From a virus: a stretch of 10,143 bases of DNA. Of the stretch, positions 2,753-9,987 are shown one piece after another. The stretch lies in UHGV virus genome UHGV-1652557; one strand, written 5' to 3'. How positions within the stretch are numbered: position 1 is the stretch's first letter; every line of letters starts with the position of its first letter. Both the position numbers and the translations under genes were made by a program. The notes under the pieces are model-generated. The model worked only from the letters and a program-made list of their open reading frames with translations, made no database searches and had not been told where the DNA came from.

Positions 2753-3442
2753 ATGAAAACAACACTCTCAGAAAGACTTAAAGAAGCCAGATTAGCGCGA
2801 GGCCTTACACAAAAGGCGCTTGGGGATTTGGTCGGGGTTAGCCAGGCTGCTATTCAGAAAATCGAAACAGGGAAAGCTAACCAAACAACTAAAATCGTGG
2901 AGATCGCGAACGCTTTGGGTGTGCGCGCAGAATGGTTATCTTCTGGCGTTGGAAATATGTCAGACAGTACAGTGCAACCAATACAATCAACTGTCAGCCA
3001 TTCCAAATACTTCAAAATTGACGTTCTTGATATAGAAGTCAGTGCCGGGCCAGGTGTAATCAACCGTGAGTTTGTAGAAGTTCTACGCTCGGTTGAGTAC
3101 TCGTTTGACGATGCTCGTCACATGTTCGATGGCAGGAAGGCGGAAAATATCCGCATCATTAACGTGCGAGGTGACAGCATGTCAGGGACGATCGAACCAG
3201 GTGACCTGCTGTTCGTTGATATCACTGTTAAATCTTTCGACGGTGATGGCATCTATGCGTTTCTGTACGACGACACTGCCCATGTAAAACGTCTTCAAAT
3301 GATGAAGGATAAGCTGCTGGTTATCTCTGATAACAAGAGCTACTCGCCGTGGGACCCGATCGAGAAAGACGAGATGAACCGGGTGTTCATATTCGGTAAG
3401 GTCATTGGAAGCATGCCGCAGACGTACAGGAAGCATGGTTAA
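2753..3442 (+). CDS. cI: CI-like prophage repressor (N-terminal HTH, C-terminal LexA-like S24 autopeptidase domain)
   Basis: 229 aa. HTH LTQKALGDLVGVSQAAIQKIETGK. Ala-Gly candidate cleavage site in EVSAGPG. GDSM serine motif and downstream VKRL lysine motif typical of the LexA/CI S24 family. Confidence 0.92.
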   Translation: MKTTLSERLKEARLARGLTQKALGDLVGVSQAAIQKIETGKANQTTKIVEIANALGVRAEWLSSGVGNMSDSTVQPIQSTVSHSKYFKIDVLDIEVSAGPGVINREFVEVLRSVEYSFDDARHMFDGRKAENIRIINVRGDSMSGTIEPGDLLFVDITVKSFDGDGIYAFLYDDTAHVKRLQMMKDKLLVISDNKSYSPWDPIEKDEMNRVFIFGKVIGSMPQTYRKHG

Positions 3443-3671
3443 TTTATCTACGACTTAAGGGAGCGAAGGTTAAGGTTTATACCACTCGGATTAGATATTG
3501 CACTAAATTCTCTATAAGAACGCCAAATCTGTTTGCATATTTCAGTAAATATTCTCGTTGTTAGCTGAGATTTGTTGCTACTGTCAGCAAAATGTCCCCC
3601 TATCTCGTAGCGGTTTTTATTTCGAATCATTATGTTAAGATGTTTCTGATTATAATGAATGGAAACATAAA

Positions 3672-4052
3672 ATGAGAAAAATCCTAATCGCTGCCATGAT
3701 GGCATCTGTATTGGCTGGGTGTGCTTCTTCAGGCAACCAGCAACTCAAAAATGAAACTGAAATTAGTGTCCAGTCTAAACTTCAGGAAGGTAAAACAACC
3801 AAGAATGAGGTTAAATCTTACTTTGGTTCTCCTGATGCTGTTTCATATACTGACAGTGGAAACGAGATCTGGAAGTACGCCTTTGCAAAAGTAAAAGTTA
3901 ATGGCACCACTTTTATTCCATTCTATGGATTATTCCATAATGGAACGAACGGTACGAAAAAAGAACTTACTATTCTTTTTAACGATGACACGATTAAGAA
4001 ATACACAATGTCAGAAACCCAAATAAACTCGAAATCAGGTTGGGCTGACTGA
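3672..4052 (+). CDS. Lipoprotein moron with a BamE/SmpA-OmlA-like domain (candidate lysogenic-conversion or superinfection-exclusion protein)
   Basis: 126 aa. Signal peptide with lipobox LAGC (MRKILIAAMMASVLAGC). Mature part shows a BamE-like pattern (KTTKNEVKSYFGSPDAVSYTDSGNEIWKYAF ... LTILFNDD), from memory. Preceded by an AT-rich 228-bp spacer with a perfect TATAAT at 3651-3656. Followed by a strong terminator. Confidence 0.85.
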   Translation: MRKILIAAMMASVLAGCASSGNQQLKNETEISVQSKLQEGKTTKNEVKSYFGSPDAVSYTDSGNEIWKYAFAKVKVNGTTFIPFYGLFHNGTNGTKKELTILFNDDTIKKYTMSETQINSKSGWAD

Positions 4053-4060
4053 TAATCATA

Positions 4061-4089
4061 CCCGGCAACCGCGCCGGGTTTTCTTTTCC
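4061..4089 (+). terminator. Rho-independent terminator after the lipoprotein gene
   Basis: Stem ACCCGGC (4061-4067) / GCCGGGT (4074-4080), 6-nt loop, then TTTTCTTTT. Confidence 0.75.
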
Positions 4090-4198
4090 TCCCCCTCATA
4101 ACTCATACCGTCCAAAAAACCACCACACCTCACTTCAGTTATCGCTATGCGATGCAAGTCACAAAATAAATCCATCCTAAATACAACCAGTTATATTT

Positions 4199-4260
4199 AA
4201 AACAACCGACAAAACAACTTTTGTTGTTGACGATAAAACAACTATAGTTTTAAATAAATT
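4199..4260 (+). promoter_or_regulatory. Left operator/promoter region (OL/PL)
   Basis: -35 TTGACG (4228-4233), 17-bp spacer, -10 TTAAAT (4251-4256), reading toward kil-gam-bet-exo. Operator AAAACAACTATAGTTTT (4237-4253) fills the spacer and differs at one base from the PR-strand reading of the OR operator. Additional AACAAC-N4-GTTGTT site at 4213-4228 and an AACAAC-containing site at 4199-4218. Confidence 0.7.
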
Positions 4261-4532
4261 CATCGCAACGACACAACGATACGGTAACCACCTGTTTCAC
4301 CGTTGCGATGACCGCTTAGATCCGCAGTTTGAATTTCAGCAGGCTTCGGGGAGTGCGAGGGGTGAAGCGGACGCGTGAACGTCGGTGTGACCAGCTGAAA
4401 TCAACTCAACACTTCATACCTCAGTCGCTTCAACGAGGCGACTTAGTTATGACAACCGGCGGCCATCCACCGCCTGAATACGCGCAGAAGTCTCTATATG
4501 TTCAGCAGCCCAGCTTACGGGCAGGAGTTTTT

Positions 4533-4739
4533 ATGGTTCATCAACATTACGGAACGCAGACCGTTAATCGAGGTGCGGTCATGCCAGGAATGCTGGTCAA
4601 ACACAAAGATGGTACCTGGACTGCATCAGCTAATTTACGCGGACGGCTTTATCTGCATCGCGGCATCGAGCGCACTTATACCCGTGATTTGCTCGTGGAA
4701 GTTTTTCTCGACGGACGCGGTAACGGCCTGAATCGCTAA
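4533..4739 (+). CDS. kil: Kil protein, KilR-type (host cell-division inhibitor)
   Basis: 68-aa reading from the ATG at 4533 with an AGGAG RBS 5 nt upstream. MVHQHYGTQ...[17 protein letters not shown]...LY...[10 protein letters not shown] resembles Rac prophage KilR as I recall it (HHFGT...PGDYVLHEGRTYIASAN...VFLGRDGLPV). Position between PL and gam. The longer ORF from the TTG at 4329 or the ATG at 4449 lacks a good RBS. Confidence 0.65.
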
Positions 4740-4814
4740 TCCCCTTTCCTGTTTTCCTAATCAGCCTGGCATTTCGCGGGCGATATTTTCACAGCCATTT
4801 TCAGGAGTTCAGCC

Positions 4815-5111
4815 ATGAACGCTTATTACATTCAGGATCGTCTTGAGGCTCAGAGCTGGGCGCGTCACTACCAGCAGATCGCCCGTGAAGAGAAAGAGGC
4901 AGAACTGGCAGACGACATGGAAAAAGGCCTGCCCCAGCACCTGTTTGAATCGCTATGCATCGATCATTTGCAACGCCACGGGGCCAGCAAAAAAGCCATT
5001 ACCCGTGCGTTTGATGACGATGTTGAGTTTCAGGAGCGCATGGCAGAACACATCCGGTACATGGTTGAAACCATTGCTCACCACCAGGTTGATATTGATT
5101 CAGAGGTATAA
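4815..5111 (+). CDS. gam: Gam, RecBCD inhibitor (short GamS form)
   Basis: 98-aa translation [21 protein letters not shown]... matches lambda GamS from memory. AGGAG RBS. An in-frame stop at 4758-4760 and no upstream ATG exclude a long GamL form. Confidence 0.95.
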
Positions 5112-5116
5112 AACGG

Positions 5117-5902
5117 ATGAGTACAGCACTCGCAACGCTGGCTGGGAAGCTGGCTGAACGTGTCGGCATGGATTCTGTCGACCCACAGGAACTGATCACC
5201 ACTCTTCGCCAGACGGCATTTAAAGGTGATGCCAGCGATGCGCAGTTCATCGCATTACTGATCGTTGCCAACCAGTACGGCCTTAATCCGTGGACGAAAG
5301 AAATTTACACCTTTCCTGATAAGCAGAATGGCATCGTTCCGGTGGTGGGCGTTGATGGCTGGTCCCGCATCATCAATGAAAACCAGCAGTTTGATGGCAT
5401 GGACTTTGAGCAGGACAATGAATCCTGTACATGCCGGATTTACCGCAAGGACCGTAATCATCCGATCTGCGTTACCGAGTGGATGGATGAATGCCGCCGC
5501 GAACCATTCAAAACCCGCGAAGGCAGAGAAATTACGGGGCCGTGGCAGTCGCATCCCAAACGGATGTTACGGCATAAAGCCATGATTCAGTGTGCCCGTC
5601 TGGCCTTCGGATTTGCGGGTATCTATGACAAGGATGAAGCCGAGCGCATTGTCGAAAATACCGCATACACTGCAGAACGTCAGCCGGAACGCGACATCAC
5701 TCCGGTTAACGATGAAACCATGCAGGAGATTAACACTCTGCTGATTGCCCTGGATAAAACATGGGATGACGACTTATTGCCGCTCTGTTCCCAGATATTT
5801 CGCCGCGACATTCGCGCATCGTCAGAACTGACACAGGCCGAAGCAGTGAAAGCTCTTGGATTCCTGAAACAGAAAGCCACTGAGCAGAAGGTGGCTGCAT
5901 GA
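5117..5902 (+). CDS. bet: Bet (Red-beta) single-strand annealing recombinase
   Basis: 261-aa translation matches lambda Bet nearly residue for residue, from memory. Confidence 0.96.
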
Positions 5903-6579
5903 CACCGGACATTATCCTGCAGCGTACCGGAATCGACGTGAGAGCTGTCGAACAGGGGGATGATGCGTGGCACAAATTACGGCTCGGCGTCATCACCGCT
6001 TCAGAAGTTCACAATGTGATAGCAAAACCCCGCTCCGGAAAAAAGTGGCCTGACATGAAAATGTCCTACTTCCACACCCTGCTGGCTGAGGTTTGCACCG
6101 GTGTGGCTCCGGAAGTTAATGCTAAGGCGCTGGCATGGGGAAAACAGTACGAGAACGACGCCAGAACTCTGTTTGAATTCACTTCCGGCGTGAATGTTAC
6201 TGAATCCCCGATCATCTATCGCGACGAAAGTATGCGTACCGCCTGCTCTCCCGATGGTTTATGCAGTGACGGCAATGGCCTTGAGCTGAAATGCCCGTTT
6301 ACCTCCCGGGATTTCATGAAGTTCCGGCTCGGTGGTTTCGAGGCCATAAAGTCGGCTTACATGGCCCAGGTGCAGTACAGCATGTGGGTGACGCGAAAAG
6401 ATGCCTGGTACTTTGCCAACTATGACCCGCGTATGAAGCGTGAAGGCCTGCATTATGTCGTGGTTGAGCGGGATGAAAAGTACATGGCGAGTTTTGACGA
6501 GATGGTGCCGGAGTTCATCGAAAAAATGGACGAGGCACTGGCTGAAATTGGTTTTGTATTTGGGGAGCAATGGCGATGA
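5899..6579 (+). CDS. exo: Exo (Red-alpha) 5'-3' exonuclease
   Basis: 226-aa translation matches lambda Exo from memory. ATGA overlap with the bet stop. Confidence 0.96.
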
Positions 6580-6758
6580 CGCATCCTCACGATAATATCC
6601 GGGTGGGCGCGATCACTTTCGTCTACTCCATTACAAAGCGAGGCTGGGTATTTCCCGGCCTTTCTGTTATCAGAAATCCCCTGAAAGCACAGCGGCTGGC
6701 TGAGGAGATAAATAATAAACGGGGAGCTGTATGCACAAAGCATCTCCCGTTGAGTTAA
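6576..6758 (+). CDS. Lambda orf60a-like exo-xis region protein
   Basis: 60-aa reading from the ATG at 6576, overlapping the exo stop. Same length and position as lambda orf60a. An alternative ATG lies at 6570. Confidence 0.75.
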
Positions 6759-6922
6759 GAACGAGTATCGAGATGGCACATAGCCTCGCTCAAATTGGAG
6801 TCAGGTTTGTGCCAATATCAGTAGAAACAGACGAAGAATTTCATACGTTAGCCGCATCCCTTTCACAAAAGCTGGAAATGATGGTGGCGAAAGCAGAAGC
6901 AGATGAGAGAGACCAGGTATGA
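6731..6922 (+). CDS. Lambda orf63-like exo-xis region protein
   Basis: 63-aa ORF overlapping orf60a by 28 nt, the same overlap as in the lambda annotation as I recall it. Confidence 0.75.
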   Translation: MHKASPVELRTSIEMAHSLAQIGVRFVPISVETDEEFHTLAASLSQKLEMMVAKAEADERDQV

Positions 6923-7002
6923 CAACCACTGAATGCATTTTTCTGGCAGCGGGCTTCATATTCTGTGTGCTTATGCTTGCCGACATGGGGCTTGTTCAAT
7001 GA
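6919..7002 (+). CDS. Small hydrophobic peptide (27 aa), translationally coupled between orf63 and the next ORF
   Basis: MTTTECIFLAAGFIFCVLMLADMGLVQ. The ATG overlaps the orf63 stop (ATGA) and the stop overlaps the next ATG (ATGA). Could be a single-pass membrane peptide, but coding status is unproven. Confidence 0.3.
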   Translation: MTTTECIFLAAGFIFCVLMLADMGLVQ

Positions 7003-7214
7003 CACCTCAGCAAGAAAACGCCCTTCGCAGCATTGCCCGTCAGGCTAATTCTGAAATCAAAAAAGCCAGACAGCAGTTTCCGGATAAAAACGTCGATGAC
7101 ATTTGCCGTAGCGTACTAAAGAAGCACCGCGAAACGGTAACGCTGATGGGATTCACACCGACTCATTTAAGCCTGGCGATCGGCATGTTGAACGGCGTCT
7201 TTAAGGAACGGTGA
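6999..7214 (+). CDS. Hypothetical exo-xis region protein (71 aa, in the orf61 position)
   Basis: ORF read from the ATG at 6999 (MTPQQENALRSIARQ...). The longer 6933 start adds a Cys/His-rich, non-protein-like extension. Confidence 0.55.
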   Translation: MTPQQENALRSIARQANSEIKKARQQFPDKNVDDICRSVLKKHRETVTLMGFTPTHLSLAIGMLNGVFKER

Positions 7215-7235
7215 ACATGAAAAGCAAAATCATCA

Positions 7236-7260
7236 GGGAGCTACAGGCTCCTTTTTTATT
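7236..7260 (+). terminator. Rho-independent terminator inside the exo-xis region
   Basis: Stem GGAGC (7237-7241) / GCTCC (7247-7251), loop TACAG, then TTTTTTATTATT. Confidence 0.6.
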
Positions 7261-7312
7261 ATTCGCATTCACCCTCAAGCGTATTAACCAACAATTCAGG
7301 GATTAATGAAAG

Positions 7313-7534
7313 ATGGCAGACATAATTGATTCAGCATCAGAAATTGAAGAATTACAGCGCAACACAGCAATAAAAATGCGCCGCCTGAACCACCAGGCTA
7401 TATCTGCCACTCATTGTTGTGAGTGTGGCGATCCGATAGATGAACGAAGACGACTGGCCGTTCAGGGTTGTCGGACTTGTGCCAGTTGCCAGCAAGATCT
7501 GGAGCTTATCAGTAAACAGAGAGGTTCGACGTGA
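7313..7534 (+). CDS. TraR/DksA-family C4 zinc-finger protein (lambda Orf73-like RNA polymerase-binding regulator)
   Basis: 73 aa with CxxC-(17)-CxxC (CCECGDP...CRTCASC), typical of TraR/DksA C4 fingers. Same size and position as lambda orf73. Confidence 0.82.
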   Translation: MADIIDSASEIEELQRNTAIKMRRLNHQAISATHCCECGDPIDERRRLAVQGCRTCASCQQDLELISKQRGST

Positions 7535-7938
7535 GCGAAATTAACTCTCAGGCACTGCGTGAAGCGGCAGAGAAAGCCGGTGAAGATAAGTGGCAGGCTA
7601 AAAAAATAAATGGTGATTTTTTCGTTATTCGTCACGGTAGTTATACAAGACAGCATGGCTACACATCGTATCAACCCATTGCGGAGATTGATTGTAAGCC
7701 AGTCCGGGATTTTGTTGCCAAGGCTAATCCGGCTACCGTGCTGGAATTACTGGATGAACTGGAAGCAGCAAAAAAGCGCATTGCAGAACTGGAAGCGCGG
7801 GAAATACTGCTCCCGGAACGTAGCAGCATGCTTCATCGAACAGATTTTCACGATGATTACCAAACGGTAATGGCATACAAAGTTTCTGAAGTCATCGATG
7901 CAATCCGCGCTACTGGCATTCGCATCAAAGGAGAGTGA
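7531..7938 (+). CDS. Ead/Ea22-like protein
   Basis: 135-aa ORF with a GTG start overlapping the preceding stop (GTGA). Coiled-coil segment PATVLELLDELEAAKKRIAELEA resembles the Ead/Ea22-like family, from memory. Confidence 0.65.
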   Translation: MSEINSQALREAAEKAGEDKWQAKKINGDFFVIRHGSYTRQHGYTSYQPIAEIDCKPVRDFVAKANPATVLELLDELEAAKKRIAELEAREILLPERSSMLHRTDFHDDYQTVMAYKVSEVIDAIRATGIRIKGE

Positions 7939-7939
7939 G

Positions 7940-8695
7940 ATGATTCACTACCACGGTGGGCCTATTACTCCTGATACGTGCGCAATGAGAGCATGGAAAG
8001 GGCGACATGCGTTTATCAGTTTTGCGCATTCAGGCCAGATCAATCTCGCGGCTGAATACTGTCAGTCGTTCGCGCTGGACAACGGTGCATTCACCGCCTG
8101 GAAAGCAGCTGGCAAAAACAAAATCGACTGGAGCGATTACTACGAGTTTGTTGCTCGCTGGAAGAATCACCCAGGATTCGATTTTGCCATTATCCCGGAT
8201 GTTATTGATGGCGGAGAGGAGGAAAATGATGCGCTTCTGAATGAGTGGCCTCACGGAAAACTAGCTGGCGTTCCAGTGTGGCACATGAATGAAAGTGACG
8301 AGCGATTTATTCATTTGTGCAATGAGTTTCCGCGAGTGGCTATCGGTAGTTGTGGCGACTATGACGTAAAGCGCCCAACTCTTGCGGTAGCCAGAATGAA
8401 AGACCTGATTCGTCACATTGTTGATGGGCATGGTCAGCCGGTTACGAAACTACATGGATTGCGCATGTTAAATCCGCTGATATTCACAAAATTACCCTTA
8501 GCCAGCGCAGATAGTACGAACGTCGCTCGAAACATCGGTATTGATAAAGCCTGGTCTGGGGCTTATGCACCTGCAAGTAAAGAGACACGCGCAGCATTAA
8601 TGGTAGAACGGATTGAGGCACACAATAGCCCTGGTTCTCTTGCGTATTGTGAACAACGCGACCGCTTTGAAATGCAATTGCAACTAGCAGTTTAA
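7940..8695 (+). CDS. TGT-fold protein, candidate DpdA-like 7-deazaguanine DNA transglycosylase
   Basis: 251-aa reading from the ATG at 7940 with an AAGGAG RBS. The upstream ATG at 7898 overlaps the Ea22-like gene by 41 nt. Motifs LDNGAF (D47, nt 8078-8080) and D191-STNVARNIG (nt 8510-8539) resemble the tRNA-guanine transglycosylase motifs DSGG[FY]Q and FDCVxPTRxARxG, from memory. No C-terminal zinc subdomain. Functional call is tentative. Confidence 0.6.
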   Translation: MIHYHGGPITPDTCAMRAWKGRHAFISFAHSGQINLAAEYCQSFALDNGAFTAWKAAGKNKIDWSDYYEFVARWKNHPGFDFAIIPDVIDGGEEENDALLNEWPHGKLAGVPVWHMNESDERFIHLCNEFPRVAIGSCGDYDVKRPTLAVARMKDLIRHIVDGHGQPVTKLHGLRMLNPLIFTKLPLASADSTNVARNIGIDKAWSGAYAPASKETRAALMVERIEAHNSPGSLAYCEQRDRFEMQLQLAV

Positions 8696-9650: not shown

Positions 9651-9930
9651 CAATGTCAGGCATAACATCGCCGAGAAATCGAAAGAAAAACAGAACAAGG
9701 TAAACGTTGACCTTGCAGCATCAGGCATGGAGTACAGAGAGCGCCTTAACATACCTGTTATCACTGAGCAGGTATCATGAGAGCAACCTGAGCACTCACG
9801 CGAGTATTTCATGGAGCGCATCAGATACTATCACGAGCAGTCGTTAAACATGCCCAAGGGAAGCAACCCATGGTATATCGATATGGATGAACAGAACGCC
9901 AAGAAGTAAACGCAATTTGAACGAATGCGA

Positions 9931-9987
9931 ACCCGCCGAGTGCGGGTTTTCTTTTATCTGAACTCGCTACGGCGAGTTTTGTTTTAT
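9931..9987 (+). terminator. Tandem rho-independent terminators closing the leftward (PL) transcription unit
   Basis: T1: ACCCGC (9931-9936) / GCGGGT (9942-9947), then TTTTCTTTTAT. T2: AACTCGC (9961-9967) / GCGAGTT (9972-9978), then TTGTTTTAT. Both are oriented for plus-strand transcription. Confidence 0.78.

Follow-up and report, generated by a model that had tools for sequence, protein, structure and literature searches.

The first gene of the leftward operon at this locus raises three questions: which of the known Kil types it encodes, what its product would do in an induced cell, and how it would be transcribed in a prophage whose left operon lacks N. The gene lies at 4533-4739 of the window, by which we mean the whole stretch of viral DNA that was analysed (10,143 nt). 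The explanation we favour, with a probability of roughly 80%, is that this gene is a 68-aa kil of the KilR family, placed as the first open reading frame (ORF) after a cI-repressed PL, and that it imposes an early block on cell division that needs no N.

The window (10.1 kb) spans the early region of a lambdoid prophage and runs opposite to the lambda map. On the minus strand lie P (796-95), O (1812-793), a YdaT-type 'cII' (2348-1809) and a YdaS-type cro (2648-2418). On the plus strand there follow a cI-type repressor with HTH and S24 peptidase domains (2753-3442; Pfam Peptidase_S24 1.2e-18, HTH_3 5.4e-13), which has the orientation of the PL operon and whose counterpart is labelled cI in the PhiR26_1 record, and a lipoprotein moron at the site that rexAB occupies in lambda (3672-4052; PHROG 3135 2.9e-48; weak BamE/lipoprotein signals). 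A strong intrinsic terminator (4060-4079, +), consisting of a 7-bp GC stem and then TTTCTTTT, ends the cI/moron transcript upstream of OL and PL; it is kept in all related loci and closes every version of the cargo slot between cI and PL. We note that the cargo in this slot varies among otherwise near-identical prophages, being a BamE-like lipoprotein in the window and SIR2, ASCH-domain, DUF6932 or transmembrane proteins elsewhere. Beyond PL, kil (4533-4739, +), which encodes the 68-aa KilR-family cell-division inhibitor, precedes gam in its 98-aa GamS form (4815-5111, +; Pfam Gam 3.4e-65), bet (5117-5902, +) and exo (5899-6579, +), and homologues of lambda orf60a/63/61 lie downstream of exo. 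The immunity region is Rac-like, since cro and 'cII' are of the YdaS/YdaT type, and the C-terminal part of O, P and the Red genes are lambda-like; lambda homology on the O/P side is restricted to 78-1259. We note that cro and 'cII' (1809-2648, -) thus belong to the Pfam 'toxin' families of Rac. We also note CCTGATTyrGGTAAAC repeats within the O gene (1257-1370), the site of a spurious Rfam rliD match, which resemble ori iterons belonging to an O with a non-lambda N-terminal half. Farther along, in the ea22/b-region of the PL operon, a 265-aa ORF (7898-8695, +) matches PHROG 887 'queuine tRNA-ribosyltransferase' (E 5e-104) and has no Pfam match; it may be a DpdA-like DNA-modification gene or a moron gene.

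The kil ORF occupies exactly 4533-4739 (+), with an ATG start and 68 codons plus a stop, and its ribosome-binding site, AGGAG at 4523-4527, is separated from the ATG by five T's. A sequence-only reading of the locus had likened the product to KilR of the Rac prophage rather than to lambda Kil and had proposed an alignment with both proteins, which bears the likeness out. In BLASTP the protein aligns Met1-to-Met1 with Rac KilR (MG1655 b1352) over 22/61 identities (36%, E 9e-13), whereas neither lambda Kil nor 933W Kil, itself of the lambda type and 98% identical to lambda Kil, gives an alignment at E <= 100. PHROG 294, 'Kil protein for bacterial septation inhibition', is matched at E 1.7e-37. 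NCBIfam NF008465 'FtsZ inhibitor protein', a 73-position model of KilR, is matched at E 3.6e-17, with a score of 62.1 bits that falls short of the curated subfamily cut-off of 92 bits. On these scores we place the protein inside the KilR family and outside the narrow Rac-KilR subfamily model. Near-identical database proteins carry the precomputed assignment Pfam PF27398 and the name 'cell division inhibitor protein', which is also every specific name given among the at least 133 clusters of its database relatives; a local copy of Pfam-A returned no family for either the 68-aa or a 136-aa form. RefSeq/PGAP lists the identical 207-nt coding sequence (CDS) as WP_000233577.1, 'phage encoded cell division inhibitor protein'.

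The wider family supports the same assignment. A five-way alignment of the kil protein with KilR and with Kil of phi80, HK639 and HK225 has a common start and 16 invariant positions, and the core positions kept across the family are H5, G7, T8, R13, V16, P18, G19, H24, T28, S32, A33 and Y40. Among six related loci the variable sites of kil are distributed 0/1/7 over codon positions 1/2/3, which indicates a translated gene under purifying selection. The gene lies in the repressor-controlled early-left operon of a lambdoid prophage and adjoins recombination genes, and its product, of about 70 aa, is predicted by AF2 to have an all-beta core and two ends that are devoid of regular structure.

The reading frame is open and in phase upstream of kil, and longer Kil coding sequences have been annotated, of 125 aa in PhiR26_1 (PV340555) and 139 aa in Perceval (OV696612), alongside numerous gene calls of 83-116 aa that include calls from metagenomes. 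It is nonetheless very improbable that the true product is a protein of 95-139 aa that starts at TTG 4329, GTG 4362 or ATG 4449. A GGAG does stand 8 nt before GTG 4362, from which the extension would open with the arginine-rich, N-protein-like KRTRERR, but in strain RSHH22 a 1-nt insertion between the AGGAG and ATG 4533 puts the upstream frame out of phase and leaves kil intact. The variable sites in 4362-4532 are spread 2/3/4 over the three codon positions, with no third-position bias, in contrast to the distribution within kil. The frame-breaking insertion and the lack of codon-position bias together lead us to regard the extension as not coding. In HK225, as read from the alignment, the frame from the homologue of ATG 4449 runs into a TAA before kil; the start methionines of KilR and of the Kil proteins of phi80, HK639 and HK225 align with 4533; PGAP picks the 68-aa form; and the 57-aa upstream extension has no Pfam match. 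We also considered KRTRERR as the start of an N-like peptide fused to Kil and discarded the idea on the RSHH22 insertion, the absent codon bias, the HK225 stop and the family-wide methionine. By these comparisons the Kil coding sequences of 95-139 aa in several phage records are over-extended, and they can be flagged as such.

What the 68-aa protein would do can be judged from KilR. Rac KilR disturbs assembly of the FtsZ ring and so stops division, is suppressed by ftsQAZ and is under NusG control (PMC5793797, PMC12482147); it disrupts Z-rings and, at high dose, also MreB (PMC12482147). Its 12-residue C-terminal tail is essential and is the active part of the protein, and KilR without its last three residues keeps its toxicity and filamentation and loses the effect on MreB and cell rounding, whatever the identity of the residues (PMC12482147). 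The AF2 model of the kil protein (pLDDT 84.8) has six strands (8-12, 20-24, 27-35, 38-43, 46-50 and 54-59), and residues 1-7 and 60-68 are without regular secondary structure, the latter forming a 9-residue C-terminal tail; this picture agrees with the published description of a KilR model (PMC12482147). Neither Foldseek against the PDB nor a profile search of PDB sequences returned a solved structural relative: the PDB matches are limited to weak likenesses to small beta-barrels (eIF5A, ribosomal proteins), all at E >= 0.2, and one structural neighbour alone is convincing, a homologue of 73 aa encoded by a Pantoea phage.

The tail of the kil protein, like the tails of Kil from phi80, HK639 and HK225, is three residues shorter than that of KilR (9 as against 12 residues here). 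Since the difference is exactly three residues, the kil protein is predicted, by analogy with the truncated KilR, to inhibit division only; it would be produced early from PL, independently of N. The locus thus offers a natural test of the KilR tail-length rule, in that a 9-residue tail should give filamentation without rounding. A Z-ring block, filamentation and suppression by extra FtsZ are known for Rac KilR only (PMC5793797, PMC12482147), and identity between the kil protein and KilR is only 34-36% overall, with tail sequences that differ. It might be argued from this, and from the fact that KilR itself has at least two targets (PMC12482147), that the protein, though a homologue of KilR, has moved to a target or role other than FtsZ, for example as a general toxin or an MreB-only inhibitor. 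We think this quite unlikely: the positions of the core motif are kept across the family, the genomic position in the early-left operon beside recombination genes is kept as well, and the predicted fold is the same as that of KilR. Under the division-inhibitor reading, inactivation of cI would send PL transcripts from ~4262 across the leader and into kil; Kil would be made early, with no N protein needed, and would transiently block formation of the Z-ring, so that induced cells would filament during phage replication and recombination.

Downstream of kil the gam-bet-exo module is essentially that of lambda, as had been claimed from the letters of the sequence. Identity to the lambda proteins is 98% for Gam and 99% each for Bet and Exo, and in blastn 4733-7426 of the window is 97.7% identical over 2.7 kb to lambda 33193-30500. 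The mosaic junction falls at 4733-4739, where lambda homology starts 6 nt before the position of the lambda kil stop codon. Since this homology starts at the kil stop codon, at 4733, two unrelated kil genes have been exchanged as exact cassettes. On the other side of the junction, the interval from PL to gam holds only a 271-nt leader and kil, with N, ral, sieB, cIII and ea10 all missing; from PL to 4733 neither strand has an ORF of 30 aa or more except for frames that overlap kil. The earlier proposal that the N-ral-sieB-cIII-ea10-kil segment of lambda is here reduced to kil alone therefore stands, kil being the sole ORF between PL and gam.

PL itself was read from the sequence at 4227-4262 (+), with a -35 element TTGACG (4227-4232), a 17-nt spacer and a -10 element TTAAAT (4250-4255), and it aligns column by column with the annotated -35 and -10 elements of phi80 pL. 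It is overlapped by two operators of the form AAAAC-N7-GTTTT, OL2 (4211-4227) and OL1 (4235-4251), and the pattern search placed a further copy in OR (2681-2697) that is 95% complementary to OL1; these three sites (2681, 4211 and 4235) are all that the window contains, against 0.65 expected. In prophages of other immunity the OL stretch is swapped for a different set of operators and both flanks are kept. We predict the start of the PL transcript at about A4262, because the initial transcribed motif CATCGnAACGAnACAnCGA is common to the window, phi80, HK639 and HK225.

The claim that kil lies directly downstream of PL holds in that kil is the first ORF, with the qualification that an untranslated leader of 271 nt (4262-4532, +) intervenes. 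This leader contains a 5'-terminal hairpin (4262-4309, +; z -3.4), a lineage-specific segment (~4286-4412, +) and two further hairpins (4420-4446 and 4458-4474, +; z -3.2). Folding of the leader as a whole is no better than that of shuffled sequences (z -0.57), so that single hairpins alone stand out, and 4263-4412, the 5' portion with the unique segment, likewise folds no better than shuffles (z +0.36). The leader has no Rfam match at E <= 1, shows no similarity to the Rac kilR 5' untranslated region (UTR) or KilS beyond a chance 9-mer, and has no second copy on the PR transcript. Its segment 4413-4480 is homologous to sequence upstream of kil in HK225, phi80 and HK639, and the counterparts of this segment are an annotated terminator in HK639 and part of the tL1 region in phi80 (record M11919). 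The homology opens at TTCATACC, just past the U-tract of the intrinsic terminator of the upstream gene in phi80 and HK225; the phi80-type N with its terminator tL1A, and the corresponding gene and terminator of HK225, are missing in the window.

How N-less prophages transcribe a lambda-like left operon that contains terminator-like hairpins is the question that this arrangement exposes. No N/nut system of the lambda type was found: there is no N gene and no boxA/boxB nutL between PL and the first terminator, the PL leader has no boxA at up to 2 mismatches, and the right-hand half of Perceval (record 27000-50143, int through lysis) has no annotated N. Terminator-like hairpins occur within the PL operon and at its end, on the plus strand, at 4764-4781, where a weak one in the lambda-derived kil-gam spacer has a sequence common to lambda, at 6640-6662 in lambda-homologous DNA, at 7235-7253 in the PL operon, and as a tandem pair at 9929-9949 and 9960-9979. 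The hairpin at 4764-4781 is presumably the equivalent of lambda tL2c/d, and that at 6640-6662 of tL3. We note that the tandem pair (9929-9979) overlaps a weak rsmX-like Rfam match (24 bits, E 0.33), which probably reflects merely the terminators.

The leader was also compared with the put RNAs of HK022 and HK639. Blastn found nothing, local alignment was no better than with shuffles, and a covariance model built from HK022 putL, HK022 putR and HK639 putL, which recovers its training sequences at 72-99 bits by construction, gave no match in 4262-4532 at E <= 10; a put RNA of the HK022/HK639 type was therefore ruled out. On the PR side we observed the sole boxA, a perfect CGCTCTTTAACAA of the rrn/P22 type, at 2405-2393 (-), 13 nt past the cro stop and in the position of nutR, with no evident boxB hairpin after it. 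The PR side may thus be subject to Nus-factor-only antitermination from a boxA without a boxB, in a phage without an N gene.

A different solution would be that the leader segment at ~4286-4412 is a new cis-acting RNA that replaces N/nutL or put and makes PL transcription resistant to terminators. The attraction of this idea is that neither the window nor, by annotation, the inspected half of Perceval contains an N, that the operon keeps its hairpins at 4764-4781, 6640-6662 and 7235-7253, and that the leader occupies the position of nutL-N in phi80 and of putL in HK639. We consider it unlikely, however. Although the leader is kept across prophages with differing operators and morons, its conservation (7.4% variable sites) is barely better than at synonymous sites; it matches neither the put covariance model nor Rfam, and it folds at the level of shuffles both as a whole and over 4263-4412. 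The variation is too low for covariation, the one change within the predicted inner stem, T4346C, breaks a pair, and the leader element has no counterpart on the PR side.

From its position, expression of kil immediately upon derepression, as had been suggested, is plausible. Immediate or strong expression is not assured, since the counterparts of the leader hairpins carry a terminator annotation in HK639 and, in phi80, belong to the tL1 region. The leader would probably damp or gate kil through its 5' hairpin, its internal hairpins and a possible Rho entry region, and it is unlikely to be a passive spacer. It is possible, if doubtful, that the leader goes further and acts as an attenuator, with a Rho- or hairpin-dependent stop ahead of kil for most PL transcripts unless it is relieved. 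The leader is long and untranslated, with C in excess of G from ~4382 to 4520 (C/G 1.4-1.7), and its hairpin at 4458-4474 with the flanking sequence is homologous to the annotated terminator of HK639 and the phi80 tL1 region. Moreover, Rac kilR is held silent by NusG/Rho-dependent termination (PMC5793797), and its 5' UTR gives rise to the terminated sRNA KilS. Yet a scan of 4080-4682 found no terminator made up of a hairpin plus a U-tract, and phi80 and HK225 have, ahead of the homologous stretch, an intrinsic terminator (tL1A) that is precisely the element absent from the window. More generally, we think it rather unlikely that the conserved 271-nt PL leader of N-less lambda-like prophages, a very common class, carries an undescribed cis-acting RNA, whether an antiterminator in place of both N/nut and put or a Rho-dependent gate. 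If it did, this RNA would control whether PL transcription proceeds into kil and the Red genes and beyond the terminator-like hairpins of lambda origin farther downstream.

The sequence-only reading had treated the joining of a KilR-type kil to lambda-type recombination genes as unusual, and here it was mistaken. Of 5426 complete E. coli genomes, 2023 cover 80% or more of the block 4060-4820, and ~1200 others match only its lambda-type kil/gam end, so that the KilR type is the commoner of the two kil arrangements beside lambda-type gam in E. coli. Over window positions 4060-4820 a prophage of E. coli strain 582 shows 100% identity, and over positions 3400-5200 phage PhiR26_1 shows 99.5%; the morons in front of the block vary and include a SIR2 gene. 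The Perceval record already annotates the gene as 'FtsZ inhibitor protein Kil, phage phi80 Kil homolog'. The layout is therefore ordinary: roughly one in three complete E. coli genomes has it, and it is annotated already. The kil-gam arrangement is a known one, a textbook lambdoid mosaic joint at which two unrelated FtsZ inhibitors are exchanged at one slot. It follows that KilR-type Kil, and not that of lambda, is the usual partner of the lambda Red genes in natural E. coli prophages.

Among the systems closest to the window are the isolated phages PhiR26_1 and the Bievrevirus group (Perceval, 4A7, D2 and others) and the prophages of E. coli strain 582 and ~2000 other complete genomes, in which the PL-leader-kil-gam-bet-exo block is 90-100% identical and variation is confined to the cI allele, the operators of the immunity region and the moron that separates cI from PL. 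Kil of phi80, gp41 of HK639 and gp37 of HK225 belong to the same family as the kil protein (40%, 37% and 84% identity, respectively), measure 68-69 aa, have an equally short tail, and have the leader segment 4413-4480 in common with it. Unlike the window, these phages place an antitermination device and further genes between PL and kil, namely N, nutL and tL1 in phi80 and putL with ORFs in HK639, and the downstream recombination genes of all three phages differ from those of the window. In prophages of Citrobacter, Kluyvera, Enterobacter and Silvania, too, the first ORF behind a PL-like promoter is a kil of the KilR type (79-87% identical); its downstream neighbours are ydaE-like and recE genes, the order seen in Rac.

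Rac KilR (b1352, 73 aa) is homologous to the kil protein and resembles it in its small all-beta core and floppy ends, and its gene too lies in an early-left operon, downstream of a repressor-controlled promoter and upstream of recombination genes. In Rac, however, kilR is followed by ydaE-racC-recE-recT and not by gam-bet-exo, and ydaG, ydaF and the KilS sRNA with an intrinsic terminator stand between the promoter and kilR, whereas kil of the window is the first ORF. We note that the sRNA KilS is annotated in the kilR 5' UTR (MG1655 Rac locus 7406-7503, -) and ends in a clear intrinsic terminator; the leaders of Rac and the window are unrelated in sequence, though both precede a KilR-type gene. 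Lambda Kil (47 aa), like 933W Kil, has no detectable sequence similarity to the kil protein of the window, but its gene occupies exactly the same slot and ends at the same point upstream of gam. Lambda Kil has been reported to inhibit FtsZ and to cause filamentation (PMC12482147, PMC5793797), in a manner that depends on ZipA, which the action of KilR does not (PMC12482147). In lambda, N, ral, ea10 and cIII stand between PL and kil, at a distance of ~2.3 kb, whereas in the window only the leader separates kil from its promoter.
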